Under the pieces are notes generated by a model, which was not told the DNA's origin, did not search any database, and saw nothing but the letters and a program-made list of their open reading frames with translations. A program made the position numbers and the translations under genes. A DNA stretch of 64,000 bases, taken from the IMG/VR virus record IMGVR_UViG_3300044818_000015, positions 26,045 through 90,044 of that record; one strand, given 5' to 3'. This document shows, one piece after another, positions 3,011 to 25,300 of the stretch. The first letter of the stretch is position 1; each line of letters opens with the position of its first letter. Origin of the DNA: a virus.

Positions 3011-3403
3011 TTAGGCCGCGCCCATGTCTTCGTACTGCTGTACTGCCGTCACCGCCCGCAGTCGCGCGTTCCAGCGGCTCCGGTCGTTGTGGTACTCGCA
3101 GGTAAACGGGTTGAACATATCGACGTCCGTCTGCGTGCAGGTGCATTCCGGCTCTTCGCTCTCGACCGCTGCAATGGCGCAAGCGAGACATGAGGGCCAG
3201 CCGTCGACGGCCGCCCGGTGCTCGTTGCAGAAAAGCGCGTTGCAGCCTTCGCATACAAATGACAGGTGATCGCACCCGCCCTTGCAGAGCCGGACTGCGC
3301 AGCCTGGGTGTCCGCAGCGCACGGCCTCGAGCTCCGGTACTCCGTCTTCGTCCCGCTCTACGTGATCGAAGGTCGTTGAACAATTACTGCAAGTGGCTGT
3401 CAT
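3011..3403 (-). CDS. Cys-rich zinc-finger protein
   Basis: Several CxxC/CxxH pairs; ATGA coupling to upstream gene. Confidence 0.7.
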   Translation of the reverse strand: MTATCSNCSTTFDHVERDEDGVPELEAVRCGHPGCAVRLCKGGCDHLSFVCEGCNALFCNEHRAAVDGWPSCLACAIAAVESEEPECTCTQTDVDMFNPFTCEYHNDRSRWNARLRAVTAVQQYEDMGAA

Positions 3404-3717
3404 GCGGATCTCCTTTGTCTTTCGTTCCAGAGGCGGTTGTAGTGGTTGATCAGCGCCGGGATGTTCAATCCGTGGCGTTCCGCGAATGCCTGGGGATCGT
3501 CGTCGAATTCGTCGTGTTCTTTTCTGGTCAGTGGGATTGTGGAGAAGTCAGAGGACTTCTGTCCCGTCCCGTGCGGTCCCGTGTGGCAGGCATCGCAGCC
3601 GCCATATCCCGAGACGACGGATGCCTGTGTACGGATGAAGGCCAAGTACTTCTTGTCGCGTGCCGGCTTTACCCCTTTGTAGATCGGGTTGGTTGCGACT
3701 TGGAAGGCTTGGTACAT
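3400..3717 (-). CDS. DUF968/HNH-like putative nuclease with degenerate Zn site
   Basis: KYLAFIR..., H...G.GQK.SD..TIPL...H pattern; first gene after the leftward promoter. Confidence 0.7.
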   Translation of the reverse strand: MYQAFQVATNPIYKGVKPARDKKYLAFIRTQASVVSGYGGCDACHTGPHGTGQKSSDFSTIPLTRKEHDEFDDDPQAFAERHGLNIPALINHYNRLWNERQRRSA

Positions 3718-3724
3718 TTGGACT

Positions 3725-3809
3725 ATGCTTGCCTGTAAGTATTATGCTTGCTGGCAGGCATCACGTCAAGTACTATCTTTCTAGCAAGCATGTGCTTGCC
3801 GGAAGGTAT
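3725..3809. promoter_or_regulatory. four 18-bp imperfect palindromic operators, consensus ATGCTTGC-NN-GCAAGCAT
   Basis: 3725-3742 ATGCTTGCCTGTAAGTAT; 3744-3761 ATGCTTGCTGGCAGGCAT; 3774-3791 TATCTTTCTAGCAAGCAT; 3792-3809 GTGCTTGCCGGAAGGTAT; lie between divergent genes. Confidence 0.75.
3741..3769 (-). promoter_or_regulatory. sigma70-type leftward promoter
   Basis: TTGACG (3769-3764), 17 nt, CATAAT (3746-3741). Confidence 0.75.
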
Positions 3810-3823
3810 ATGATGGATGCCTG

Positions 3824-3985
3824 ATGGCACAGGAACAAGAAGGGAAGCCTTTGACCGTTAAGGAAATGGCCGCGATGGGGGGGAAGGCTCGCGCCAAGGG
3901 CCTGACGAAGAAGCGCCGAAAGGAAATAGCCTCCGACGCGGCAAAGAAGCGCTGGGCATCGACGAAGGCGGACGGGCCCAAGTAA
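3824..3985 (+). CDS. 53-aa basic KGG-like small DNA-binding protein, candidate regulator
   Basis: MAQEQEGKPLTVKEMAAMGGKARAKGLTKKRRKEIASDAAKKRWASTKADGPK; below ORF-track cutoff; TATGAT at 3809-3814 just upstream. Confidence 0.75.
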   Translation: MAQEQEGKPLTVKEMAAMGGKARAKGLTKKRRKEIASDAAKKRWASTKADGPK

Positions 3986-4061
3986 AGTCCTGCTGATCGG
4001 GTCTCCTACCGGACTGGCACTATCCCGAAACGCACGAACAGCCTACTGGAGGTTCCTCACC

Positions 4062-4892
4062 ATGGTTAACAACCGAACACTCGCATTGACGCTGCTCACG
4101 ACTATGGCGGTCTCGACCGCGTATAGCCAAGCTGTCAACGCCCAAGCCATCAACGCGGCCAGCGGAGCTGCAATCGTGGCTCCTGGATCGCTCATTTCCG
4201 TATTTGGGAAATTTGATGCTCCCACAGGAAAGGCCACGACGCTGCCGTTGCCGACGACAACAATACCAGGGGGATTCTCCTTCATGATGGCCGGTGGTGC
4301 AGGCATACTCGCTCGATCCGTTTCGTTGCTCTATTGGAGCCCTTCCCAGATCAACGCGCTCCTGCCGGCTTCGGCCACGTCTCAAAGCCAGTTTCTGGAA
4401 TATATCTATGGCCAACCACTGTCCGGCAGGGTTTTGCTTAGTGTTGCGGCGCAAGCGCCCGGCATCTTCACCAACCCGGTTTCCGATTGCAGCCTCGCGG
4501 CGGACGGCTGTTGGCAGCGGATCTTAAGGGGGATCATCACGGACGGCTACTACTTTCCGATCAACAGTCTCAATGCCGCTCGTCCGGGCCAATCTCTTGT
4601 GATTTGGGTCACTGGATTGGGAAGCAACGTCGTCTCGCTGCCGTTAAGCGAATACCCCGTTGTCGCGCTTCTGCCAAGCGGCGCCGCGGTAACGGTCAAG
4701 GTGTTCTATGCCGGGCCGACAACGTTCGCGGGATTGGATCAGGTCAACATCACTCTACCCGGCGGCAAGGCGCTCTCTCCGGGATGCGTAGTTGGCGCAC
4801 ATGTCGAGATTCCCTTATCAATGAAGTCCGTTGTCACGGGCATCCAGTCCAACACGGTTTTACTGCCGGTCGTCACCGATTCCTGTAACTAA
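4062..4892 (+). CDS. secreted TIGR03437-like (Solibacter C-terminal domain) protein
   Basis: Signal peptide; NAAS, APGSLISVFG, LLYWSPSQIN, APGIFT, ARPGQ..VIWVTGLG, YAGP..AGLDQVN motifs; GGAGG SD. Confidence 0.8.
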   Translation: MVNNRTLALTLLTTMAVSTAYSQAVNAQAINAASGAAIVAPGSLISVFGKFDAPTGKATTLPLPTTTIPGGFSFMMAGGAGILARSVSLLYWSPSQINALLPASATSQSQFLEYIYGQPLSGRVLLSVAAQAPGIFTNPVSDCSLAADGCWQRILRGIITDGYYFPINSLNAARPGQSLVIWVTGLGSNVVSLPLSEYPVVALLPSGAAVTVKVFYAGPTTFAGLDQVNITLPGGKALSPGCVVGAHVEIPLSMKSVVTGIQSNTVLLPVVTDSCN

Positions 4893-5818: not shown

Positions 5819-6337
5819 AACTTCCCCTATTCTAAAGTGCCGGTAGACCACGGCAATGCATTCCCAGAGGTCCATATCGCGATGCGCCCAGTCTTACGGG
5901 TAACGCTGCGAAGCCCAACCGGCGAGGCACCGTTTACGGCAATTGTAGATTCCGGTGCCGACTATTGCCTGTTCCCCCTGCACCTGAGGGCCAAGCTCGG
6001 GCTGCGCATGGAAGATGCCAGGAGCGTGTCGGGGATAGCGGGCTATGGATCCAGCTACGATAATGGCCAGGATGTCTTATTCTGGCCATTGGTGCTGGAC
6101 ATCGCTCCAGGGCTCTCGATCAGCACGGTAGTTGGTTTTGCCGAGCGGCAGGACGAAGTAGGCTTTGGCCTTTTAGGTCAACTCGGCTTCTTCAGCAAGG
6201 TGGCGCAGGTTTATTTCGACCATAGGGCTGGATGGTTTGCGATCAAGCCTTTAGATCCGGCGGAGTCTTTCGCTATGCCACCTGGGACCAGGCCGAGAAG
6301 GGACACGCTGCGGTTGTGGCGAGTGCGCACAAGTTAG
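5810..6337 (+). CDS. retropepsin-like aspartyl protease
   Basis: AIVDSGADY catalytic motif, GLLGQLGFF motif, N-terminal F.Y...RP.L.V. Confidence 0.8.
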   Translation: MLHNFPYSKVPVDHGNAFPEVHIAMRPVLRVTLRSPTGEAPFTAIVDSGADYCLFPLHLRAKLGLRMEDARSVSGIAGYGSSYDNGQDVLFWPLVLDIAPGLSISTVVGFAERQDEVGFGLLGQLGFFSKVAQVYFDHRAGWFAIKPLDPAESFAMPPGTRPRRDTLRLWRVRTS

Positions 6338-7322: not shown

Positions 7323-10300
7323 TTATTGCCCTGAAAGCCGATTCATCTGCTCGATAACTTCCTGTTGCTGATTCAGCGGGAGCTTCGGCCAGGCGGTCCT
7401 GATCTTCTTGTTAAGAATGGGAGTGAACAGGATACGTTCCTCGGGCGTGGTAATGTCCATGATGTCGAGCGCCGACATCATGTCGAGGGACTCGAAGCCC
7501 GCGACATTCTTCGGCACCTTGGCGCGCTTGAGGGCTAGCTTCACGTCATTTGGCGAGATCACGCCCGCGGCAATCTGCTTGCCGATCAGCTCGTTGGCTT
7601 CGTCGATCTTGTCGTCGCGCACCAGGCTGGTGATCTGGTTCTTCACCTTCACGCGGTCGGCATTGGCCGCGCTCGATCGCTGCCGCGCCAGGAACTCCGC
7701 ATGGTTGAGGGCGTCCCCAGGCCGGCTGAATAACTGCGGCGTTGCCAGATCCACAGCCATACGCAGCCAGTGATTCGCGGGGTCGTCGCCGTGCGGCATC
7801 AGGCCCTTGGTCAGCCCGGTCGCTTCGCCGACGTTCTCGAGGAAGCCGTTCATGGTGACAAGTGGCGCCAGGGCATGCGCCTTCGCCCAGCCAGCCATTC
7901 CCGGCTTCTGCGTTTCTACCGCTTTCATAAGTTGCGGGTTAAACTTGCCGCGATCGTCGCGCCAGCCGGTGACGTATGGCTCGGTTCCGCTGAGGCCCAC
8001 CCAGGCCGCACTGAACGGAGGGCCGAGGAGCGGATGCGCCGCAGCGTTAAAGGCGCCGGCGACGGCCGCGTCCATCAACTGGTCCGTGCTGCCGCCGGCC
8101 TTGTAGGCGTCGAAGGCTCCGGAGATGCCGAGAGCGCGCGCGCCGCGCTTCACGAGCGGCGAGAAGAAGCCGATATCGATGTAGGCGTCTCCATTCGACG
8201 GCGGGCCCCACAACTGTTGGGCCAGCCAGGTGGCACGCTGCTTATCGGTCAGACGCACGGCCAGGAGCTTCGAGTGCGGATCTTTCCATGGCGGGTCCCC
8301 GCGCATCGCTTCGTGCATGGCGATCCACAGGGCGATCAGTCCCACCGCTCCGCCGGTTATTGCCTGCAGGGCACGCAGGCCTGCGCCGCCCTTGGGCATC
8401 GGTCCGCGGCCGGTCCAGGCGTTGACGCCATTCCGCGCCATGGTCGAGCCCGCGGTGTAGAACGGGCTCCAGCCGCTTTCCTTCGCAGCGCGCTCGATGC
8501 TGCCCTGCAGGGCGCGGGTGTAGTTGCCGAGTTGGTTGACCACCAGATACAGGTCTTTCGTCGTCGCTTGCGGGTACAGTGCTTTAGCGGCGCGATACAT
8601 CACCAGCCGCGCACGAATGTCGATCCCCTTGGGACCATACAGGAACGGGCCGAAGCCGAGGCTCGCCTCAACATCCCGCTTCGCTGGTCCCGGCTGCCGT
8701 AGAACCATCGCGGCAAAGTCTTCCGCCGTCTCACGCAAAGCCCGCTTAATTTCGCCGCCGAGGGTTGGCTCGACGTCCGCACCCATTTGCGCGGCGTATT
8801 CCCGGCTCTTCTTGAACCAAGACGAGGCCATCGAGCCATATTTCTCTGGCACCACCCCGAGCTTCGCCATGTCGATGATGTCCTGGACGCTCTCCTCGGT
8901 GGTCGGATTGGTGTTGATCAAATGGAAGATGGCCGCCGCCCGCTTGGTGAATGGGTTGCCGCCTGCGATCTTGCCGGCGAGACTCGTCCCAAGGAACGGG
9001 GTATTCGCCACCAGGGTGCCGATAAGGTTCGCCGAGTGGATCACCGCATCGAGCGGTCCGGCCAGCGTGAACTGAGTGATCTTGCCGATGAGACTCGCGG
9101 GGTCCGACAAGTTGAGGTTGTTCTTGTCGAGAATCGGCCGCAGCTCCTCTTCGAGCCACGCCGCGGTAACCATGTGCTGCGCCGGCACAAATACGGATCC
9201 CTGTCCTGGCGTCACAATCTGGCGGTCCGGCTTAACCTCGACCTTCACGGCCTTGTAATCTTTGCTGCGGATCGCGATCGAGTCCGGCAGGGATTCGCCG
9301 CGGCCCAACTTCCGGCCGAGCTTGTTGTCTTCGAGCGCCTGGATCAGCGCCCCCTTATTGTTGGCGCGGAACGCCTGGCGCAGCCGGTCGGCCAGTGCCT
9401 CCATGCCGGCGTCGTAGAATTCTCCATGGCCGGTGGCGAAATAGTTGGCGATGTTGGGAGGCTTGCGATACGGGACCGCGCGCCCCCAGCGGCCCTTGGC
9501 GTTCGGTTGCTCTTCATCCAGGCGGACCAGCGGGTAATAGGTGTCAAGCGGCCCAAGGGCGTTTGAAAGCACGCCTTCGTTCTCTTCGTGATTCTCCCGT
9601 ACCGCATCCTCCACCAGCGTTTTGTAGACCTTCAGGCCGCCGGCGAATCCAGCGTGTTGGGTGATGTCCTGGTACTCGGTCTCGGGCATCATCCGCGCCA
9701 CGCGCGCCGCCGCCCGCTCGAAGGTGTCCACCAGAAACGCACGCAGGCCGTCCATGTCGCCGCGCTCGAGGAGCGCCGCGGCCGTCAGCGCCGGGCTCTG
9801 GATCGGCACGCCGATACTCTCCTCATGAATCGCCTGGAGGGCGTGCATGACGCTTGCGAGGAATGCCGGCAGGTCATCGTTGGTCGATTGCGCCGCGCCT
9901 TCGGCCATGTTGTCCCAGCGTCCGCGCAGGCCGCGCAGCCGCGATTCGATCAGCGATCGCCGGAAATTGAGCCAGCTCGGCCCGTTCTTCCCTAGTGCCG
10001 CTTCGACTCGTGGCGCCGCAGCCCGCATGAGCGCCACAGTTTGCGCGCGCGACGTCGCGGTCTGTACCGCTGCCGCGTGGGCGGGATGGCTTACCTTTTC
10101 AAGCTGGGAGAGGTTGCGGACGAGCTTGTTTTTGAGCGCGCCGGTCTTCGACTGGTAGCTGGCTGGTTCGTTTAGGGCTTTGCGGCGCCGGGCAAAGGCC
10201 GGTCCGTCTTGTAGAAGAAGTGCGGCTTGTCCTCGGGATCCTCCGGCGGCATGATTTCCTCCATGGCTTCCGCGAGAGCTTTGGGGCCCTGTCTCGCCGC

Positions 10301-13300
10301 TGTCAGCCCCTTGCGGTAATTCGCCTTGAGGCGTTCCAGATCTTCGTTCTGTTTCGGCGTTAATTCCGGCACGTAGCACCGCCTCTTTCATCATGGGAGC
10401 AAGGTTTGTGATGGCTTGCTCGACTGCTTTGGCTCCATGCTGCTTGGTGAGCAACGTGAAGTAGTGCGTCCCTAACTCTACCGCTTGCGGGCGGGTAAGT
10501 CCCAGTTCTTCGTACTGGCCGCCCACCAGGTGCGTACCGATTTCGGCGGCGATCTCGTTTTCGGGGTATCCCTTGAGACGCAGTTGCACCGCTGCGTCTT
10601 GCGCGAACGGGTGATCGAGTAATTCCTGCTCGTGCTCGCCGAGGTGCCCCTCTAGCTGGTCGATACTGAGGTGCCACTTCTCATGGCGCAAGGTGGCCGC
10701 GGCGCGCTGCAGGCCCGCGCTTCCGTTGACCAGCAACACGGATTGCTCGTTAGCCCCTGCTTTTTCGAGAGCGAGCGCCAGCGCCGGATGGGTCGGCATC
10801 AGCGCTTTCACCGCCCTGACGACGTGGCGCGGGTGCAGGCGCATGCCATCGAGCGCCGGATCTCCCCAGACTTGGCCGATCGCGGTTACGTTGGCCTGGT
10901 TCGTGATCAGCTTACCGGGCTGTACGGTGATCCGCAGTGCGCCCGGGTCCGAGGTTTCGCCGTCCGGCGTGCGGGCGAACAGCGGCTGTCCCTGCATCAC
11001 CGAATCCACCATGGCAGGCGTGATGTCGATCGAGTGCAACGGCTGCAGCGCGCCTGGATTATCGGTGGCTACCCTCGCGACGAAGGCCTCAGCCTGTGCG
11101 CGGGTTTCAAATTCCCTTACGGGTTCGGACAGAGTATCTTGGCTATCCAGAACGGAGAACATCTGGCCGGCTGCTCCGCCGTCCTGCTCGTCGATAAATA
11201 GGTCGCCGGCGATTGACGGTTTATTTATCTGCGTCGTCCCTACCTTCGCGTCCCATTTTTTCCCGTACTTCTTGGCGTAGTCGACCAGTATCTTGTCGTA
11301 GAAGCCCTTCATCCCCTCGCCGCCGACTTTCAGGTCCAGGCCGGTGAAGGTTCTGGCGGCAGGGTCGCCAAAGTCCGACTTTTCACCCTCGCCCGCTACG
11401 ATCCTTTGCGCCATCTCCTTGCCGACGATATCTTCGAGCCCTTCCGCCGTGACAGGTCCAGTGCGGCCGGTGTCGTAAATTGTCTCTCCGCCCTTGGCAT
11501 CGACTGTAAGATCAAACGTCCCTCCTTTGGCTGGTTTTGCCCAAATGGATTCAAGTTGCTGGCTCAGGTCGTACCGGTCCGCATGCGTCTCGCCGGTGTC
11601 CCAGGCCAGCCTGTCGTAGCCGTTTTCCGCCGCATAGCGCAGCATCCGCTTGAAGGCGAGCTCGTGCCAGGTCTTGGCGAATGGTGCGGGAGGGACGCCG
11701 CTATCATTCTTGTGCACGGTGGACAGGGTGTTCGCCTTATCGATCCACTCCTCGCCGAAGTGCTCGCGGAGAGCTTCGAGCCGTTTCGCCTTACTCGCCT
11801 GCGCGGCTTTACTTGCCTGTGCGTTGGTGTCGCCCGGCCTTTCGAAAAGCCATCCGAAAGTGTAAGGGGATAGGCCGAGGTCAACGCTGTTGAGATACGC
11901 CTCTGCTTGATTGCGCAGCGCGTCCCACTGGCCTCCCTGGTAGCCCTTCTTCTTTCCTTCCTGGTGCCAGTCGCTCTGAAGTTCGTAGACGTGCAGGATC
12001 TTCTCAGGTGGGGTGTAAGGCGTTCCGTCGGCGCTGGTCCAGCGATCGCCGAAACGGACGTGCGCGAGGACGTTGGGCTCGCTCCAGTGGGAGGAGCGGT
12101 AAGTGCCCGCGGTCTGCCGGGTACGCTCCATCCCGTTGGCGTCGGTGTAAGTTTCGCTCTTCGCGCCGGGCAGTGTCAGTAGCAGCTCGCGGTAGTTCTC
12201 GCCGCCCGGGGTGACGTAGCCGCCGTACTTGGCTACAGATTCCCTGGCGGGGCCCTGGTCAAGGTCAATCTCGATGCGCTCTGCTTCGACGGCATCCTTG
12301 GCCGCAGCAATAGAGTCAAACTCGCCGAGCGAGCCATGGGTGCTCGTAAGGCTGAAGCCGTCGTATCCTTTATTGGGCGTGATAGTGTAGCGGCCTTCCG
12401 GCGTGTCGGCGATCCAGTCGGGAAGCTCTTCCTTCCACGCCGTAGGCTCGAGCTCGGCGCCTCCGCCCTTGACCACTTCCTCGACCTGCACCTCGTTCGC
12501 CTTCACGAACGCGAGCACCTGCTCCCGGGTCACCGGCCCCTTGCGCTCTTCGAGCCAGGTATCGAGTCCGGTCCATTTCAGCTCATCGGCCTTCACTCCA
12601 CTCTGCGGGTTGCGCAGCATGGCCAGCAGTTGACCTGGCACGGCCGGTCCTTTCATCTTGGCCGCGATCGCGCGCTCGAGCTGGGAATAGAAGCCCGGGG
12701 TTTTGCGGGAGTACTGCGGTGTGTCCTTGAAACGCTCGGCCTGCTCTGCGTGAAAGGCCTTCCATGCCGCCGCGTCCGCCTCATAGAATGCCTGAGCGGC
12801 TGCGGTGGAATCGTCGTCAAAGGGGCGGTCCGCTTGACTCTTCTGGAATGCCTGGAAGGCGCGGTCTCTCTCCTTCACGAACTCGTCGACGCGCCGGTGC
12901 TGCGCGTTGTTAAACTCCGCCCGGCTCGCTATTACCTTTTCGGCACGTTGCTGGCCGGTCTGTGCCGCCGCCGGCGAAAGCTCGGCCAGCGATTGCTCCA
13001 GCCGTTTGACGGCCGCAGCAGCCGCGGCGCGCTCGCCCGGTATGGTGGCGCGCTCCATGAGTGCCTTCGCCGAGCGTAATTGATCGGTTAGCCTGGCGCG
13101 GGGGTCCTGGAGCACGCGCGAGTACTGCGGCTTGTCCGCTGCCTTCGGCTGGCGCGAGAAGAGCGGCGCCTGCTCCGGCTCCTGGCCCTGGTCGCCGAAC
13201 AGGCTATCGCTGCCGCGGTCTTTCGCCGGCTTCAGCTTGGCGGGCCTGGCCGCCATACCGGATTTGACCTGCGCCGTCAGTTGCGCGCCGAGTAGCCGGT

Positions 13301-16300
13301 CCGCGGCCGATTGCGTCTCTGCTTGCGAGCTCGCTTCCGCCACGCGGTCCACCAGCGAGGCCTGGCCGGCGATTTCGTGCGCCTTCGCCCTGGCACGCTC
13401 CAAGGTCGGATAGATCGTAACCGTGGGCAGGGTCTGCTCGGCATCGAGGTCGCGCAGCGTGACCGCGTATCCGTTCGGATGCCTGGTGACCACGGACTCG
13501 AGGCCGTCTTCGTGGTTGGTATAGCGCGCCAACACTTCGGGCGCCTGGCGCGAGAACTGCGGCGCATCGGGCGGCGCCTCGTCCGGCTTCACCGGATAGG
13601 CTTCGAGAATGCGATCGAGGATCGCCCCTGTCGTGTTGGGCCCGTCCCCGTCGTACTTCCTGGGGATGTAATACACCGGCGTGATGCCCTTTTCGGAGAG
13701 AGCGCCAAGGGTCAACAGATTGCGGGCGACGTCCTGGTTTGGCGGGAATAGCTGAATTACCTGGATCCGTCCAATGATCCCGCGGCGTACCTGGGTGTTG
13801 CCTTCGAGGGTGTAAGTCAGGTTGTTGCGCAGCACGTCGTCATGGAGCTGCTTGGCGTCGACGGTGCTCTTGCCGCCCGAAATGCGATCGAGCAAGGCGC
13901 GAATCCGCGATTCGGGAATGTCGATACCGACCACGCGCTCGGCAGTCTTCGAGTCCGCGGTGGTGTAGATGCTGTTGCGGATGAAGGCTGCATCGCGGAT
14001 CGGATTCCAGAAGCGCATCACTTCGCCGCCAATCAGGTGGTGATGGGTGGTGGTGTGAGTCGGCGCCGCGTCGTAGCGCTCCTTCCAAATATCCTTGGCC
14101 CATTGCTGGGGATCCTTGGCGATGGCTTCCGCCGCGGCCAGCGGCGCCCGCTGCGCCTCCACTTCCTTGGTGCTGGCGTCAACCCGCTTGCGCTGCCAGC
14201 TATCCGCCGGCATCTCGTACGCCTTAGCCTTGGCAAGGGCAGTCTTCGCCCGTTCCAGTGCTTCCTCCCGCCGGGTGCGCGCGAAGTACTCGAAGTCCGG
14301 CGCCGCCGCCTCATCCGCGCGGCCTTGCGCATAGCTTAGATCGGATTCCGCGTCGCGCACCCTCGAGGTGCGGTTGTTGTCTTCGTCCCGCTTCAGTTGA
14401 GCCTGGTCGCGCTCGAGGTCCCGCTCCGCGCCCTTCAGCGCGTCCTGTGCCTTGCTCAATTCCTCCTTCGCCCAGGTGTCCACTTCCTTGAGGCCCTTGC
14501 CGCGCAGCTCCGCCTGCGTGACCTTGAGCCAGCGTCCGCGTTCCGGCTTGGCGGTGTAAGACGACGGTTCGACGTTTCCGTCCGCGTGCACGGTCGGCGG
14601 GGCGTCGATCACCAGATAGAGCACGCCCTTCTCGTTGCGCGCGATCGCCGCATGCCGCTTCTCGTGCTGCAGGAGGCGCTCGTCCAACTCCTCGGGCGAC
14701 ACGCGCTCCGTTTTGTTCTTGGCGTCAACGGGATAGTAGTAAGTCTCCGCGCCGGTCTTCGGATCTTTGGCGAGTAATCGCTGTTCCTTTACTTCGATCT
14801 CATCGCCCGGCAGGGTTTTGACGCCGGTATCGAGCGTGCCCGCGGCGATCGCCTGCTCAACGGCCGCATTAAAGATGTTGAAGAAATAGCGATACGTCGC
14901 GTTTTGAATGTCCGGATCGAGCGCCATCAGCCGGTTCAGCAGCTTGGTGACGTTCGTCATATCCGCGGGCGGGATTTCGGGCCCGCTCGAGCCGAGCTTG
15001 ATTACTCTGAGATCGGTGAGAACCTGGAGGCCGCTGAGCCCGGTGCCGGGTACGGGTTGGTTGCGGAGGAGTTGGGTATAGAAGGAGTTGGTCGCGGCGC
15101 GGCCCTGCTCCGTCTCAATGTTGGCGTTCTCGCCCATGGCGGAGCCCGCCGCGGCGTTCTTCTGGCCTTTGGTCAACGCGCCGAGCGAACCCAGGCGCCG
15201 CTGAATGGTCGAAACGAACCGTTGCTCGCCCGCCAGGTCGGAAATCAGGAAGACGTACTCGGGCGGCTGCTTCTGGTTGGTGCGGTGGGTGCGGCCCAGC
15301 ATCTGCTGCGCCTTGTCCGCGGACCAGCCCGTCTGCAGGGTGATGTGATAGCGCTTTTGCTGGTTGGCGACGTCGTTGCCGGCGTGCAGCGAGATTCCGG
15401 TACCGCCCGCCGAGGAGAGCACCGCTACCCGCTTCTTGCCGCCTTGGAAGGCGCGCATCTCGAAGAGGTTGATTTCTTTCTTCGAGGCCTTGGGGTCGCC
15501 GCGTGGTACGAACTTGCCGATGGAGCGGTCATACTTCTCTTTGCGTCCTGTGATCTCCGCGACGTGCTTGTCTCCGCCCAGGCTGTTGATCAGGATGTCG
15601 AGCGGATTCTCTGGCATGTGCAGATCGCGGTTGAGCTTCGCAATCAGCGCATCCCGGGCTTCGACGGCCGCCGGATTGACAACCGGGATCTTACGGCCCT
15701 GCTCATCGTTCCGGTAAACCGGCACTTTGATGGGGTTGCCGCTCGAGTCTACGTCGTCGGCATACTGCTGGGTCGGGTAACTCGTGAGGACCATGTTGAC
15801 CAGGGCTTCCTTCGGCCCGAAGTCATACTCCGGTAAATCGTCCGGATCCTCGTCCTCGTCGCGCTGCTTGGCTTTCTCGCGATTCTGCGCCGCCTCGTTG
15901 GTGTTCACCAGCGTGATCACTACCGACTTACCCTCGGCCAGCGCCTTATTGGCGAGCTCTACCGCGGTGGGCGTCTTGAGCGCGGTAATCAGTAGACCGA
16001 AGAAGCGCTGCTGTGCGCCGCCGAACGCGGACATGAAGTTGCCGCGCTGCTGCCGGCCGCCATTGGTCGTATTGGCGATGGTGGCTTCGGCGTGCTGAAT
16101 GACGGAGGCCCAGGCCTGCGTTGCGGTGCGGTACAGGTCTTTCTGTTCCTTGGATAGCTTGTGGGTCTCTGTCTCGTAAGTGACGCCCTTGTAACTCAGC
16201 GTCCGCGCCAGATACTTGCCCTGCGCCTTGAGTGAGCGGGCGATCAGCTCCATCGCGGCAATGCCGCCTGGCCCGATCTGCGACTGGAACTCGCCGAACC

Positions 16301-19300
16301 CTTGCGGGAAGGCTGTCCCTGGCCCCCACTGGCCCAGGCGATCGAGATAGCCGAGGTTGATTACATCGGTCGCGGCCGTCGCCGAGAGAGAGACCGTGCG
16401 CAGCTTCGGCATGCGCGCCAGCAACTCCTTGGCCGCTACGCCCCTCTGGCTTTCCGAGCCGCCTTGGGCGGCGACGGCCGATTTGAGATTGTGCGACTCG
16501 TCCCATAGGATGTACGCGCCTTCGCCGTCGTCATCGCCGCGTAGATACGCCTCCATCTGGTCGATGCGGCGCTGCCCGGTCTTATTCTTGCCGGTGAGCA
16601 GGGCATAGGTCGAGAACAATACGCCGTCGTGCTCGATCTTCTTGCCGTAGCCGAACTTACTGAACGCCTGCACGGCGGGGTTCTCGCCCATCACGTTCTT
16701 GCCGTCCTCGATGGAGATTCCGCGCGTCAAGGCGTCCGCGCCGATGTTGCGGAAGTCGTGAATGGCCGCGTCCATCAGGTCCCACTTCTCGGAGACCCAG
16801 ATCAGGCGCTTCCGTCCCTGGAGATAGTTATCCCAGAGGATGCCGGCGGAAATGCGGCCTTTGCCCACACCGGTTCCGTCGCCGATCAGCGCACTGGCAT
16901 AGTGCCCGCCGGGCAGGACGATGGAATTCTGCTGGCCCGCGAACGCGATCGCTTCCATCTGCACGGCGGAGAGGCGGCCGTTTTCAAGGACCGAAGGCGG
17001 CAGGGAGGGCTTGTAGGAGATGGGTGGCGGCTTTACGGTCGCCATCGTGCGGGTTTCGACGATATCGCCGGGATGCGCCGGTCCGGCGATCGAGGGGCGG
17101 TACGGAACGAACGGGCCGTTGTCGGCTTCGGCTTCCGGTTGGGGGACTTCTTCGAGGTTCGGGCCTAGTGTGAGAGTAGACGGTCGTTCGTCATTTGAGT
17201 CCGGAGGACGGCTTTCAGGACGTTCAGCGGCGGGAGTTTCGGGATGTCCCGCAGACTCAGTTCCGGGTTGGACTCCACCAGGTAGTTTATCGCCAGCACC
17301 GGCTTGAACTCCCGCATGCTGACTACCAGATCCTCCAGGCTTTCCGGCAGGTTTGCCCGCTCGGCCAGTTCCTCGGCCGCCCGGGTGTACTCCTGGCGGC
17401 ACTGCATCATCATTGCCAGGATCTGCGCCCAGGCCAGTTCCGGACTTACCGGGCCGAGGGCCATTACCGCCTCGCGGGACAGGCTCGATTTGCGGGCGAT
17501 CGGCTGCGACATCTCTAAGAAGATTGTACGCCTCCTCAAGCGTCTCAACATTTCCCTGGAGCACGGAGTCCCAGGTTTTCACCGCGCCGGGCTTCACCTG
17601 CGAGGGCGTGGCCCCGTTCTTGTCGATGACAATGATCCGCGTCGAGAACGTGGTGCCGTACTTCTGGTATTCCTTGCCGGCGATCCGGATGTTGGCGCGC
17701 ACGTTGTACTGCGCCGCAATCCGCTCGAACCATTTGCCCGAGGGTCCGGTGGTGAGGTTGGCGCCGCCGTTGGTGTCGTCGGCGCGTCCGCCGCCCAGGA
17801 TCACCACCAGCCGGCCGTTCGGGAGGAGACGCTGGAGCGCCTGGTCTACGTGGTTCAGCCCATAGATCGCGCGGTTTGTGGCTTCGTGCGATTTGATGGC
17901 GCTCGCCGAGAACGGCGGATTCATCAGCACCACGGTCGGACGGATGGCCGGATCGAGCAGCGCGTTGATCAGCTCGCCGTCGTGCGCGGTCGGCTTATTG
18001 AAGCCGATCAGCTCCATCATTTGGGCGCGGCGCTCGGAGACCTCGTTGACGTGGACTTCGGCGCCAATGGCCTTCGGCCAGATAGCAATCCCGCCATTGC
18101 CGGCGGAGGGTTCGAGTACGACGTCAGTAGGAAGGATGCCGCCAACTCGGGCCACTACATAGGATTCGGTTGGGGGCGTCGAGAATTGCTGGTTGGCCAG
18201 TTGTTCATCGGTCCGGACGCTCTGCGTGGTGACGCGCCCCAGCAGCTCGCGCAGATCTTTCAACGCGGCGATGGGGTCCATTTCCATCAGCGCCTTGCCG
18301 CGTTCGAGCAGCAGCTTGTTGATGCCGGCTTCCATGGCATCGAAGGCGTCTTTCGGGGTCCAGTCGCCCGAGGCGCGGGATCCGCCCAGGTGGAGCTCCG
18401 CCAGCTTATTGAACTCGACGACGTTGCCGAGCGAGCCGCCGGATTTCAGCTTGTCGTAGACGGCATCGATGAGCGCTTGCGCGGGATGCGCCGCGGGCTC
18501 AGGCTCAGGCGCGCTCGTCGACACGCCATTAATCTTGCGGATATCCGCCGGTTTGATGTAGACGGAGCGGGCCGGCTTGTCGGTGGCCGGGATGCGTACT
18601 TCAATCTCGCCGCTACTGCCGTAGATCGCGACGACATTACCCTTGTGGATGCCCTGCGGGGAATCGAAGACCACAACATCGCCCTTGTTGACGACGGGCA
18701 TCGGCTTGTCGGCTTGTACTGGTTGCTGATCGCCGGACGCGGGTTTCTCGGCCGGGGGCTTCATGGGCTCCACGGTCTTGCCGTTAATCTTCGCCACGGC
18801 GACGGCGAGACGGTGCACCTGGCGCAGCGCGTCTTCCGGAGTCTGGCCGGTTTTCTTGGCGTACCACTGGATCACCGGGCCGACGTCCTCGTTCATGCGG
18901 GCGAGCCAGGCGGCTTCGTCGGTCACGCCATCGAGCATGTGCTCGGCGCCGACCGTGGCCAGATCGATGCGCGCCTGCTTGATACGCGGATCGGGCGGGG
19001 TGGTTCCGTTGGCGCCTTCGGTGCGCGAGTATTGCGGCTTGTCGGGCTTAGAATTGACTTCGCCATCTTCGGGCGCGATATTGGAATCAGGTGCACCACT
19101 GTTCGGCGAAGGAGTTTCGCCGCTCCCTTTGCGGGGGGTTCCGGGAACACTCGTAGTCCTCCCGGAAGGCAGAGGAACTTGACCGCTGGTTCCCGGGGGA
19201 GTCGGTCCGGGACCTTTCGGGGCTTCACCAACGCGGATTCTGGTGGTGAGGGCCGGCGGTTCATCTTCATATACGGTAAGCAGCCATTTCTTCGCTTTCC

Positions 19301-22300
19301 CGTCATAGTCCAGGCGCACTGCGGCTTTGTGCCGATCGTCAAATAGCCGAATACGATTCGCTCCTGAACGCTTTTCATCCACCTGCATCTTCGGAAAGAA
19401 CTCCGGGAGCTCGGCAAGAATTGCGGTGCGGCCCTTAGCCACCAGCTTGGCGACGCCCTCTCCGTCCTCGAAGTCCTTTTCTGGCGTGCCCGACTTTCCC
19501 CAGATGATGTCCACGTCCCCGAGGCGGGGGTCCGGGTGATATAGTGCCGCTACCGCGTCACCGGTCTCATGTTCGAGGAGCCACGAGATCGCGCCTTTGG
19601 CGTCGTGGTGGAACTGCCGGAGAATCGGCCCGTGCGATCCCATTTCTGGCTGATCTGTCCTCCGCGAGTACTGTGGTTTGTCGTCTTCCTCCAGCAGCGC
19701 CTTCATGCGATCGCGCGCTTCCTTGCCGGCATCGGCGAGCGGATTGGCTTTGGCGGGCGGCGCGGCCTTCTTCGGAGCGGACGGGTGATTTGGCGGGAAT
19801 TTGGATTTCGGGGCGGGGGTTGCCGTGCTTGCGTCAACGGTGACGACCTTGCCGCTGTCTCTCACGGCCAGGGTGAAGGCGGGCTCCTGGTCGCCGTGGT
19901 TGTCGATGCGCAATACCTCGCCAGAATGCGCGGTACCGCCAGGCCCGTTGAAAGTCACCCTTCCGCCGATAGGAAACCGCTTTTCCATGTCGGCCGTAGT
20001 GGCGCGAGCCGTGCCGCGCTTCGCCGCAATTGCGGCAGCCGCGGCGTCGACGGCCTCTTGCTCTTCGTCGGAGATCTCGGGCTCGGCGGGCTTTCCGGAA
20101 GCGAGCGCCTTGAGATCGGAGATCTGGCCCCGGAGAAACTGCTTATTCTCCTCACCAGCCGCCGCGGCGTCTTCCAGAATGGATTCGGCTATGGCGATGT
20201 CACCCCGGATCTCGGCGCGGGCATCCGCCCGGGCTCCAGCCGAATCGGAGCTGAGTGTCAACTCCCACTGCTTTTGTTTCTCGAAGAGGCTGTCGATGAT
20301 ATTGGCGAGCGCTAATTCGGCCTCGTTTTTAGCCCTGTGTTCCTTTTGAAGCTGGTCTTCGAGATTGGCCGTGTGCTTCTTGCTGATAGGGATCTTCTCG
20401 GCGGTGGTCAGGTCTTCCGTCACTGGCGCGGGAGCCACCGGTCCGGTCTTCGGCGCTCCGAACGCCTTGGCGAATTCCTCGACCGGATCCGGTTGCTCGA
20501 AGAACGATTCCGCGGTGGAGCGTTCCACATAGGCGCGGACCATCTTGGCGATCGCGGTGCCGGAATCCTTGCGCAGGATGCCGGCCAGGTGCTCCGCCCG
20601 CGGCGTCGTCTCCGGCCGCTGGCTGCCGAACATCTCGGGCTGGTCCTTGGCAAGCTGGCTGTTGGCGTCGAATCCGTGCGCCTTCTTGTAGTCGGCCTCG
20701 TATTCGATCAGCGCCGTGGCCTGGCGGACGTCGGGTGAAAGCGTCCAATCCGGACGCGCTTCGATGATGCGCAATAGGGGGGCAATGCGCTCCAGTTTGT
20801 TGCGCAGCGCGGGGGCGATGCGCTTAAACTGGTCGCTGTCTTCGAACAGGCTGCCCATCACCAGCTTGGCTACGCGCTCCTTGGCGGCCTTGGTGACCGC
20901 GCCGCTGGTCGAATCGAAAAGGACGGGCCGCTCCTCTTCGGTAAAAATGCCTTCGCTGATGAGCCGGTTGACGATGCTCGGGCCCATCTTCGAGTTCATG
21001 ATGTCGTTGAGCGAATCATCGGGACCGAAGGATTCGAGGACGGAGGCGAGATACTTCGCCAACTCCGGGGTGATGCTGCGGGCGTCTTCCGTTGCCTGTT
21101 CGGCAGTCGAGAGCTTTGCCGTGGGTACTTTGTTGAGGTCGGCGATTGCGCGTTGCTTGTCGATAGTGTCGTCGGCGATAACGCGGAACAGGCCCGGCTT
21201 TTTGAATCCGTCTATCCCGGCGGGATCGATACCGAACATGGGGGCGCGCTTCCTGAGCCGCTCCTGGTACCGCTTGGCAAGTTCAGGAATCTTGTAGGCG
21301 CGCTTCAGGGTGATGAGCCGGTTGTTGCCACCGAGGGCGTTGCCTACGTCCTCAATGACGGAGGGGCCGTTGATCGCGTCGGGGTTGTCATTGATGAGAT
21401 AAGCCTCATCGAAGAAGGCGGGCAGGCTGTTTTGGATCGGACGGGCCCGGTTCAGCTCGTCGCTGTAATCTCGGCCGTTAACGTATGGATAGTCGGGGTC
21501 TTCTTCGAAAGTAAAAGGATCGTGGCTGGGGCGAACGTCGTCTATTTCTCGGATGGAGTAATAGGCTTCGTAGGGGAGGGCTCTTCCCTTGACACGAATT
21601 TGCGTCCGTTCGCCTTTAATCTCTTTTCGGCCTGTTGGAGGCGGTTCAGGAAGCGATTCTCCTTCGTCTCCACGCTGTCCTCGGGCTGAACGTGTTTCAT
21701 CGGATGGCTCCTCTACTATAGGCGTTTTGTCGGCTGGGGGTTTTTCTTGTATTGAACCTTCCTCAGATGTGGCGGTCGGTCCAGCGGCTTCGGTGGTTGT
21801 GGCAGGCCGGATGCGCTCCCAGTAAACGGTGGCTTCAACGTCGTCATCGTCGAATTTGACGCGAATGCCGTCCCGCGTCTTCGTGTTGGCAAAGCGTTTG
21901 AGGTCGACCATTTTGACCACTGCCGGGCGGTCGGGCTTCTCGCCGGGGATGCTTACCAGGACGTGCTGGCCCACCGCGAAATCGTGGATGCCGGCGGGCT
22001 TCTTCAGATCCGGATAGTCGGCCAACACTTCCGGCGGTATGGTCTCGCCAACGTTCATTGCCTTCCGGATCGCGGCCTCATGGCGCCGGGAGAGTTCCGT
22101 TGTCGGGACGCGGGCGGCGCCGTAGCGCTCCGGATCGCGCAATTCTCCTTGAATCATCTGCGCAAAATCGTTGCCGGGGTTGTTGTAGTCGCCGTAGGTA
22201 TCAGCGAGCGCGTTATGGCGCGCAGTCGTATCGCGACTGTGGTTCAGGAGGTCGGCCAGTTCCCGGTAGGGCAACTCCCAGGCGTGTTTGCCCTCGGCGG

Positions 22301-25300
22301 CGGGCTTCTTCTGGCCGCCCCACTCGCGGCCCTTGGCGGATGGCTCAAATTCGGGGATGCCGCCCAGCTCGGCGATGACCGCGGCGTGGTCGATCTTCTT
22401 CGCGGTGGCGCGCTTCCGGAATTCGGCGAGCTTCGCCTGCGCTTCCTCGATTCGCTTGTCGCGATCGCTGATGTTCTCCCACGTCTCCCATTCGTAGCGG
22501 CCCTGGCCGGCGAATTGGGCATCGGCCTCGCGGGCGTGCTTCAGGGAGTCCGCAATTTTCTGGAGAGCGTTGAGCGAGAGCTTGACCGATTGTTTGACGC
22601 GCTCGGGAACTTCTTCGGGCGCGTGCTGTGGCGCTTCGGCGGGAGGCGCATCGCCGGACGCGGGCGCGGGGGTTCCGCGCTTCTTCGCGATCGCCGCGGC
22701 TGCCGCATCGATGGCTTCCTGTTCCTCTTCGGAAACTCCTGCCTCGACGGGCTTCTTGTCTGCCAGCGGGTGTTGCGGGGGAAGCGTCTGCTTCTTCGGC
22801 GGGGCGGGTGGCTTTGGCTTTACGGCGGCCTTCCAGAGGTGATCGTGCGATGGCACCTGAATCACGCCGGGCTTGGCGTCCTTCGCGATGCCTTTGATGC
22901 TGTCTCGGACCGCCACACCACCGGTGCGGATCTCCGCTTCCTTCAGCCCGGTGTGCTGTGCGACGAAATCGACGTACTTCTGATCGTGCTTCGAGGGAGT
23001 CTTCTGAGCTGCAATGTACGCGGCCTTGTCCAGGTCGTTCTCGAATTCCAGGGTGAACTGTTTCGGCCCGTAGCTGTAGCGCGGGGCGGCTCCCTGGAGA
23101 GCATGCGGGAGGATGGCGGGAGTTGCAGATTGTGGCTGTTCAGCCACATTACTTACTTGACTAAGCTCTGGTTTTTCTTCGGGCGCCGGCGTCTCGTTTT
23201 GGAGGGGAGGCACATCGCCGGACGACGGCTGCGCTTCCGCCGCGGGCTTCCCTGTTAGCGGGATTTCGACTATCTTGCCGTCTTTTCCGCTGAACGTGAG
23301 CGAATCGAGGGTGATCGTTCGTCCGGTGACGTTGCGAATGATGCTCCCGTCGTATAACTCGCGGTGTGTCCCTGGCTTCAGGTAGGCGATGGTGACGTGT
23401 GGCTTATAAGTGGGGAATGTGTTGCCGGTGTGGTCGACGGCATCGCCGACCAGCTTATTCAGCTCGTGCAGCTCGGGCGAGTCTACGTCTACCTTGAGGA
23501 CGTCCGGTCCGCCGTCCGTACCCTTAAATATGGAGGTCTTGCCGAAGGTGACGGTGATCGGTCCTTGCCCTTTCAGAATTTCCTGAATCGGAGTGGGGTC
23601 CGCGCTGGGGTTGCCGTATTTGACGGTGACGTGTATTTCCTTCTCGCGGCCGTCGCTGGCGTCGCCTCCGGTTTTCTCCCCTGCTTCAACGTGTAAATGC
23701 TCATCGGGGATGGCGGCGCCGAACTTGCGCACTGCATCCGCGATATCCTCCGGCATGTTGACCTGGGTAGAAGAGTAGTCGTGAGTTTGAGGGGCAGTAT
23801 CATCATTTGATACCGGCGCTGCTTTCTCTTCGGGCGCGGGCTTCGGCTTGCCGGCCGCGGGCCGCGCCATGGCGGCGTCCACGTCGGCACGCAGGGCATT
23901 GTCGAGCGATTCGTATGGTTTACCGTGCCGCGCCATCGCAACGCGATCGCGGGCGATGCTCTCCGGCGTTGCTTCGGGCGCGGCAGCCGCGGGTTTCGGC
24001 GGCACGTCGTCGGCACCGTCATCCGGCTTCGGCGGTTTCGGTGGCACGTCATCCGGCTTCGGTGGTTTCGGCGGAACATCATCGGGCTTTGGCGGTTTCG
24101 GCGGAACGTCCCTCTTGCCGGTCCGTTGGAATTCCTTCTCGAGAATGGAATACGCCGCTTGGTTGCGCCGGAAGATAGCCGGGTCGACGCCGGGGTTTCT
24201 GTCCGGATGGGACGCCATCGCGGCCTTGCGGTACGCGGCGCGCACCTCTTCGAACGTCGCGTTTCGGTCGACGCCTAGAATATCGCGGGCTTGGTCCTGG
24301 GAAAACTCCGGAGATCCGCGGGGCCGTCTCTGTCGCCGGGCGTCATCCTCCTCACGCTGGCGCTTTTGCCGGGCTTCTGATTCCTCACGTTCGCGCTTGA
24401 GTTTGGCTTCATATTCCGCTCGCCTTCGCGCGGAGGCATCTGCGCTTTGGTCCGGAGGTGGCTTCTTGGTGCCATCGCGTGCGGCCGTTGTCTCCTCATA
24501 CATCTGCCACATGCGTTCGTCGGTGTACTGGTGGCCGCTGGCGGGGTCTTCCCACATCCCTTGCGCGTTTTTCTTATAGAGGTTGTCGCGCCATGTCTCG
24601 TAGGGGCCGGGCTTGTAGCCGTCGTCGGGTGGGGGCTTCTTGGGTCCGCCGCCGCCTTCCCGCTTAAACTTCTCAAAGAGGGACTCTTCGTCAAATTCAT
24701 TGCCGTTAGTTCGGTCCTTTGACTGCCAGCGATCTTCGGTACCGTGTTGCTCGTAAAACTTGTCTCGCCACGCATTAAATTCTGGGTCGGGGGCGCCGCC
24801 CCTTTGCTCGCTGCGTCCATGGGTGCCAAAGCGTTGGTTATACTCAGCGTGCAGCGCTTCATCGGTGAAGGTGTTGCCCGCAGTGTCTTCCCAAGTGCCT
24901 TGCGCCGTCTGCTTGTAGTTCTTATTGCGCCAGTCTGAGTAGAAGTTTCTAAATCGGTTGGGGCCCGTGCCGTGGGAGCCAGGGTCGCCGCTATCCGGTG
25001 GGGGCTCGTCAACGATTTTCTCTGCTTCGCCGGGCTTGAACTTGAAATTGAAGATGTCGCCGAGTTTCTTCTCGATGGCGGTAAGCACCTTTTCGCGGTA
25101 TTCCGGACCGGCCGCGTGGACAAAGGGCAACAGGGTCATGGCGGCATGGCCCACCAGGTCGCCGGCCGTGGCTGGCGACGGGTCTTGCTTGAAGCGCTCA
25201 TACACTTCAGGTAGGTCTTTCGCCATAGTGGTGGCGAAATATGCATCGACGCCCGCCCGCACCGAATCCGGTATCCCTGGCAGCCTTAGTCCCGCGATGG

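Follow-up and report, generated by a model that had tools for sequence, protein, structure and literature searches.

A conserved small gene in the +1 frame of the methyltransferase–helicase junction of a giant polyvalent-protein gene

The DNA analyzed here (the window; 64,000 nucleotides (nt)) is part of the 90-kb virus record IMGVR_UViG_3300044818_000015 and carries on its minus strand a giant open reading frame (ORF; 7323–26948) of 6541 amino acids (aa) with a TTG start, the reading frame of which is referred to as frame 0. All of the features of this gene described below lie on the same strand. Pfam matches within the giant ORF comprise DnaJ (aa 889–942), a 2H/Acb1-like phosphoesterase (aa 1101–1195), ddrB-ParB (21180–21572, aa 1793–1923) and a Strawberry-notch-type helicase (14817–16994) with AAA_34 at aa 3319–3607 and Helicase_C_4 at aa 3781–4044. 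An N6-methyltransferase-like module with an NPPF motif is located at 17514–18551. No Pfam match at E ≤ 1e-3 was obtained across the approximately 2500 residues that follow the helicase (window 7326–14816, aa 4045–6541). The giant ORF combines several conflict-related domains in a single chain, as do polyvalent proteins of phages and conjugative elements, and its predicted architecture is that of a polyvalent protein with a methylase-helicase dyad, as treated in the main text of Iyer et al. 2017 (PMC5512222). The best explanation for the carrier is a virus-like element of soil Acidobacteriota, whose giant gene would encode a polyvalent multi-enzyme protein.

A preliminary description of this DNA had claimed three small same-strand ORFs in the +1 frame, each placed where the main frame becomes a G/P/S/R-rich linker. 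All three were found at the coordinates given, on the minus strand and in +1 relative to the giant ORF, each fully contained in it and each overlying a G/P/S/R-rich stretch of frame 0. The ORF at 17165–17512 (115 aa plus stop, ATG; the listed ORF begins at an upstream ATG at 17551) overlies frame-0 aa 3146–3262, between the NPPF region of the methyltransferase upstream, the C-terminal end of which holds the nested start, and AAA_34 of the helicase downstream (from aa 3319). The ORF at 10172–10372 (66 aa, GTG) overlies the frame-0 linker aa 5526–5593 and comes after a region with HEKWH, in keeping with the claimed position behind an HExxH domain. The ORF at 21542–21700 (52 aa, ATG) overlies frame-0 aa 1750–1803, which abut and overlap the ddrB-ParB match, as had likewise been stated. 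The proposal that these ORFs are real genes stood up strongly for 17165–17512, reasonably for 10172–10372 and weakly for 21542–21700.

Open +1 stretches as such are common in the giant ORF: 44 of them span at least 50 codons, the longest 286 codons, and several exceed the three ORFs in length. When synonymous codons were redrawn for the same frame-0 peptides from the giant gene's own usage (5000 draws), the +1 frame stayed open in 35–95% of the resamplings. The openness of the three ORFs is therefore not beyond chance; their codon phase is. The GC content at the first, second and third codon positions (GC1/2/3) of the whole giant gene is 0.66/0.46/0.76. At the three ORFs the frame-0 GC3 drops from 0.76 to 0.33–0.38 and the gene-like pattern moves to +1, a phase shift that the preliminary description had named as a check and that is seen at all three. 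By +1 score per codon they hold ranks 1–3 of the 44 stretches (0.24, 0.10 and 0.06; the remaining stretches score −0.25 or lower), and negative frame-0 scores are confined to them. In windows of 120 nt, another frame outscores frame 0 in 23 cases at five places only, namely the three ORFs and two weak places where all frames are negative (19059–19238 and 24309–24428). For each of the three ORFs, neither the observed +1 score nor the low frame-0 GC3 was reached in any of the 5000 resamplings. The three ORFs are the sole places in the 19.6 kb that combine gene-like codon usage in +1 with non-gene-like usage in frame 0. The two weak places were rejected as nested genes: their +1 scores are negative, and both are low-complexity frame-0 linkers in which all frames score poorly, the one at 19059–19238 rich in P/G/S/T and the one at 24309–24428 rich in R/E/K. 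A P-Q-Y-S-R motif lies within the former.

The product of 17165–17512 has a wide family. When 1.84 billion representative proteins were scanned in full with HMMER, 92 homologues were returned at E ≤ 1e-3, 28 of them at 1e-10 or better, with the top one 66% identical. Most of these proteins are 110–130 aa long, and many start with Met-Ser-Gln at the point that corresponds to the ATG at 17512. Ten records that were checked are unnamed or 'hypothetical' and stem mostly from contigs of 1–3 kb, on which a gene caller would choose the better-scoring frame. In two loci (L001 and L002), identical to stretches of a Candidatus Angelobacter and a Terriglobales metagenome-assembled genome, the homologue lies at +1 within frame-0 ORFs of 4450 and 2469 codons and shows the same codon-phase switch. 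Here, the frame-0 flanks of the junction are conserved (TLEEAYN..L..VAE.RP upstream, Y.P...GP.HP..IVET.TMATV downstream) and the linker is unconserved. An order-level search for the family was positive in 2 of 401 genomes, and a metagenome scan gave two short contigs only; the nested peptides had no tblastn match in phages or plasmids, and no match was found by a single-protein scan of viral contigs with the 17165–17512 peptide, or by tblastn of the methyltransferase–helicase junction against phages.

For a wider survey, 80 viral loci were retrieved with an alignment of the junction; one of these with a short frame-0 ORF (L082) was left out of the count, which thus covers the window and 79 loci. 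A +1 stretch open for at least 100 codons is present at the same junction in 66/80 sequences (59 distinct peptides), and 55 of these nested ORFs join the window's copy in one BLASTP cluster. The +1 frame has a higher codon score than frame 0 in 52 of the 66. Among the 15 uncounted loci, six hold the nested protein as judged by a hidden Markov model (HMM) of the nested peptides, three have a +1 ORF of about 115 codons that lacks a significant match, four are contigs that stop short of the junction, and two (L082 and L087) are without a nested ORF. Altogether, the nested ORF is found in 71 of the 76 viral loci whose contigs reach the junction. It is also carried by three conjugative or large plasmids of cultured Gammaproteobacteria (HMM E-values of 5e-10 to 2e-15), namely MEALZ_p of Methylotuvimicrobium alcaliphilum 20Z, a plasmid of Methylomonas sp. 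LL1 and pTHIMO01 of Thioflavicoccus mobilis. The giant coding sequence of MEALZ_p is MEALZ_RS20390. The PLSDB gene table, which is incomplete, lists the giant coding sequence alone under the junction in MEALZ_p and the LL1 plasmid, and no gene there for pTHIMO01. Negative controls behaved accordingly: a shorter enzyme of the Rhizobium pRL7 type has an ordinary linker of 75 aa with neither a +1 ORF nor the signal, and in L082 and L087 the linkers or inserts are likewise ordinary and a +1 ORF is absent. In L087, the junction (around 3400–4600) is filled by a genuine frame-0 insert of several hundred residues in place of the nested gene.

Two lines of comparison indicate on which frame selection acts. 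When the final 100 codons of the nested ORF were compared in 2145 locus pairs, significant similarity was detected in 166 pairs in +1, in 30 in frame 0 and in 25 in +2, and the bit score was higher in +1 than in frame 0 in all 166 significant pairs. In the nested core of 11 close pairs, which stem from five groups and are not independent, substitutions at frame-0 codon positions 1/2/3 amount to 103/54/35, compared with 505/350/1309 in the flanks; read in +1, the order in the core is third, first, second codon position. At the same time, frame 0 contains no stop in 9030 codons across the nested region versus 353 expected at 0.039 stops per codon, the density of the equivalent frame in other parts of these genes. 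The +1-phased similarity and substitutions, together with the missing frame-0 stops, imply that the +1 frame is under purifying selection for its sequence and that frame 0 is selected only to stay open. These comparisons concern 17165–17512, which by such sequence measures is a real nested gene.

The start of the nested gene is conserved as well. Its codon is kept as ATG, with GTG or TTG in a few loci, and the ATG spans two frame-0 codons at the methyltransferase end, the first for Asp or Asn and the second for Val, Glu, Asp or Ala (D-V in the window). A Shine–Dalgarno (SD) core, GGAGG or AGGAG, is located 4–12 nt upstream of the start in 31/58 loci compared with 2.1% of 129,229 control positions, the starts for this count having been chosen by an automatic, imperfect procedure. 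The relatives of 17165–17512 thus possess translation start signals of their own. In many loci, a +1 stop stands 1–5 codons ahead of the conserved ATG, which virtually excludes entry by frameshifting, as the +1 frame of these loci is not open in continuity with frame 0 upstream of a shift site. Within the window, an SD motif had been claimed for each of the three ORFs. Well-placed motifs precede the two shorter ones, GAGGAG (21708–21713) 7 nt before the ATG at 21700 and AAGAGG (10382–10387) 9 nt before the GTG at 10372; the GAGGAGG at 17531–17537 is separated by 18 nt from the ATG at 17512, too distant for a good SD. The −10 hexamers of the same description (TATAGT and TACAAT) are present, yet a scan of 10000–22000 for the sigma-70-type consensus gave no site on the minus strand and two sites on the plus strand versus 1.9 expected, so an internal promoter of this type is unsupported. 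We infer that internal initiation on the giant mRNA would be the most economical reading.

Some homologues bear on the question of which frame came first. Free-standing homologues from a soil metagenome (L003), a Terriglobales genome (L007) and genome G354 (L010) have stops in the frame equivalent to frame 0. L004 is a frameshifted copy, and some homologues carry the small domain as the C-terminus of longer proteins (P0007, P0040 and P0079). According to Pavesi et al. 2013 (PMC3744397), the frame of an overlap with codon usage nearer to the rest of the genome is the ancestral one. Because free-standing homologues exist, the +1 codons are genome-like, and frame 0 is unconserved and atypical, +1 is probably the older reading, and the tether would have been overprinted on the small gene as neighbouring genes fused. 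This probably reverses the direction of the preliminary description, in which the small genes had been called overprinted.

Taken together, the best explanation, to which we assign a probability of roughly 0.8, is a junction read in two frames. Frame 0 of 17165–17512 would supply a sequence-unconstrained, G/P/S/R-rich tether, kept free of stops so that both enzymes are made as one chain. The +1 frame would encode a conserved protein of about 115 aa, initiated separately at its own ATG, in relatives mostly with a GGAGG-type SD, and the fused giant ORF would have arisen by reading through this older small gene. The ORF at 10172–10372 would probably be a second junction gene and 21542–21700 possibly a third. 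Several points weigh against this explanation. Eleven of the 66 nested ORFs are not joined to the cluster by BLASTP, and at 14 of these 66 junctions frame 0 is not outscored by +1 in codon usage. The substitution counts come from the few groups mentioned above, and in the window's copy the SD is badly spaced. Its product is only mildly acidic (core pI 5.9; pI, isoelectric point), no family, structure or context match points to a function of the nested products, and translation of all three ORFs is predicted from sequence.

The nested products gave nothing better than E = 0.03 against Pfam, NCBIfam, PHROGs and PDB sequences, and no clue to function came from the genes next to the free-standing copy in L007. 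The family consists of small, mostly acidic proteins with a median pI of 4.73 (52/58 below 6; plasmid copies 4.2–4.35). The nested gene holds its place between methyltransferase and helicase over flanks of only 30–40% identity and in two phyla, in Acidobacteriota-associated elements and gammaproteobacterial plasmids. This suggests that the 17165–17512 product may be a dedicated partner of the methyltransferase–helicase pair. The preliminary description had proposed inhibitors or partners for the adjacent enzyme modules, passed on with them as cassettes; the strict linkage in position to the methyltransferase–helicase pair would fit this proposal. A partner such as a chaperone or inhibitor could act in the producing cell and remain undelivered when the giant protein leaves it; this is a speculative idea, with the odds somewhat against it. 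Alternatively, the nested protein might be real but unrelated to the flanking enzymes, an independent cargo such as an anti-defence factor lodged in a tolerant linker. Many anti-defence proteins are small and acidic, free-standing homologues occur in unrelated neighbourhoods (L003, L007 and L010), and both 10172–10372 and its positional counterpart in L091, a relative described below, evolve fast. The retention of one position over such diverged flanks and in such different carriers argues against free cargo, which we consider rather unlikely. Still less probable is a generalization of the partner idea, in which junction genes are a design principle of polyvalent proteins: tethers would derive from read-through small genes, and the three products within the 6541-aa gene would be stay-behind chaperones or inhibitors of the adjoining modules while the giant protein is packaged or transferred. 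If true, this principle would add an unannotated layer of proteins to the counter-defence of phages and plasmids.

Regarding the two shorter ORFs, 10172–10372 is probably a real nested gene. With +1 at 0.30 and frame 0 at −0.39 per codon, its signal is as strong as that of 17165–17512. One relative (L091), with flanks 65% identical, carries at this junction a +1 ORF of 59 aa that likewise shows the codon switch (19.7 vs −16.7). Frame conservation in relatives, proposed earlier as a check on all three ORFs, was borne out for 17165–17512 in more than 70 loci; for 10172–10372 the place of the ORF is kept in one relative, with a peptide similarity short of significance (shuffle p = 0.06). This shortfall counts against a gene, as does the lack of any homologue of the 10172–10372 peptide in a word-based search, in tblastn against phages and plasmids, and in phmmer. 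The junction is a module boundary, since P0098 and P0099 begin just past it as separate proteins, and P0094, P0096 and P0097 have similar G/P-rich linkers there. The module that follows (window 9992–10200; P0093–P0104) opens with a conserved N-Y-S-G-L-G-A-x-K-D-K-x-V-R-N-L-S-Q-L-E-K, and the preceding modules vary among relatives. The upstream module (giant aa 5366–5563) is present twice in each of P0094 and P0097, and the unit may be repeated.

For 21542–21700, we put the chance of a real gene at slightly short of even. The +1 score is near zero (0.03–0.06 per codon), its first codons show partial similarity to P0094 in frame 0, attributable to either frame, and an A/G/P-rich linker (L091 601–750) yields a comparably weak +1 signal; each of these points argues against a gene. 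The L091 linker was itself rejected as a nested gene, having no convincing ORF. The last third of 21542–21700 overlaps the conserved start of the ParB-like domain. Additional searches with the short ORFs and their surroundings were negative within their respective scopes. With phmmer, both short peptides gave self-matches only against all loci, the genome and P0093–P0105; a word-based search with the 21542–21700 peptide found no homologue, and the 10172–10372 peptide was not found in G001 and G002. The flanks of 10172–10372 had no match by tblastn against phages or in 401 genomes of the phylum of G003. Viral contig scans with P0094 or with the frame-0 flanks of either ORF found none, and the ParB flank of 21542–21700 was found in none of six related virus records.

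A further reading has to be weighed, in which 17165–17512 is the sole gene and the other two ORFs are mere peculiarities of composition that are not translated, for instance captured genes whose remnants decay in linkers. It would explain why no homologues of either short ORF were found, why the L091 peptide is not significantly like that of 10172–10372 and why 21542–21700 scores near zero per codon. A decaying remnant, however, should lose its three-base periodicity, which both short ORFs retain; moreover, both have well-spaced SD-like motifs, and L091 keeps ORF and phase at the 10172–10372 junction. We regard this reading as unlikely.

A programmed +1 frameshift at the methyltransferase end, yielding a truncated methyltransferase with the small domain as its C-terminus, is very improbable. 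The ORF does lie on the same strand in +1, and the domain does occur at the C-terminus of the longer proteins P0007, P0040 and P0079, but the stop just before the ATG leaves scarcely any room to shift in many loci, and the kept start codon and the SD core in about half of the loci point to initiation instead. A chance origin of all three open frames in a gene of high GC content, with frame 0 alone coding, is hardly credible and already refuted for 17165–17512: the frequency of open +1 stretches, their persistence on resampling and the weak scores of A/G/P linkers such as L091 601–750 fit this idea, but none of the 5000 resamplings reached the codon phase, and for 17165–17512 there are the 92 homologues and a conservation phased on +1 that extends over more than 70 loci. 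Assembly errors or compensated frameshifts, by which the +1 peptide would be a true segment of the giant protein and the frame-0 linker an artefact, can practically be dismissed. One genuine frame break is known (pTHIMO01, L094 5920–6249), but more than 70 independent assemblies, finished plasmids among them, share the layout in which +1 always ends in a stop and frame 0 is always open. The window stretch shows 0 differences to DNA run X1, which is possibly its source and not independent.

The two-frame junction with an internally initiated conserved protein has partial counterparts in known systems. In Bacillus subtilis, comS is described as a small other-frame gene wholly inside the giant multi-module gene srfAB, with which it is co-transcribed (PMC12915044). 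The gene at 17165–17512 likewise is a small other-frame gene within a giant multi-module gene; unlike comS, it fills an inter-module tether and encodes about 115 aa; homologues of it also stand alone, and the nested gene is found repeatedly, in many elements from at least two phyla. In contrast, comS overlies sequence coding for a folded part of the nonribosomal peptide synthetase, not an inter-module tether, and is not known outside Bacillus. The polymerase spacer of hepatitis B virus (HBV) is described as a disordered inter-domain tether overlapped by PreS, variable in this reading and considered younger in evolution than the remaining domains of the polymerase (PMC9093120). Here too, a tether between enzyme domains and an other-frame protein share the same bases. 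HBV differs in being an animal virus with a 3.2-kb genome, in which the overlapping gene reaches far past the spacer, whereas 17165–17512 is confined to the tether and is part of a prokaryotic mobile-element gene of 7–20 kb. In phage lambda, Rz1 is nested at +1 in Rz, has its own start, and the two products cooperate; Rz is a small gene, with no linker logic and no multi-enzyme fusion.

In the account of the methylase-helicase dyad by Iyer et al. 2017 (PMC5512222), the main text is without the words 'overlap' and 'linker', uses 'nested' only for a hairpin fold and describes no junction gene. A literature search turned up no account of a gene inside this junction, and 17165–17512 represents a new case among same-strand nested genes. 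Gene callers normally do not report genes that lie wholly within another gene on the same strand, so a conserved family at the methyltransferase–helicase junction has gone unseen. The locus would serve as a clear prokaryotic case in which a disordered tether was overprinted on a gene of earlier origin, and evolution under a two-frame constraint could be studied in the many independent copies of the layout. As the carriers include cultured methanotrophs, translation and function are directly testable. If the nested product controls or chaperones the delivered enzymes, it would bear on how mobile elements deploy their counter-defence.

Among the minor observations, low-depth fragments identical to window 10000–22000 are present in the soil metagenome of a second study (run X2), and an Rfam search over the same interval gave 0 matches. 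In pTHIMO01, the segment L094 5920–6249 was rejected as a nested gene, as the Strawberry-notch C-terminal domain runs on there in +1 and frame 0 stops at 6249; it is a real frame break or a pseudogene, which RefSeq annotates as separate pieces. A gene-like +1 frame combined with a non-gene-like frame 0 is also found at L017 1741–1890, L069 721–870, L085 301–570 and L031 2101–2310, and these segments are possibly additional junction genes of other families.

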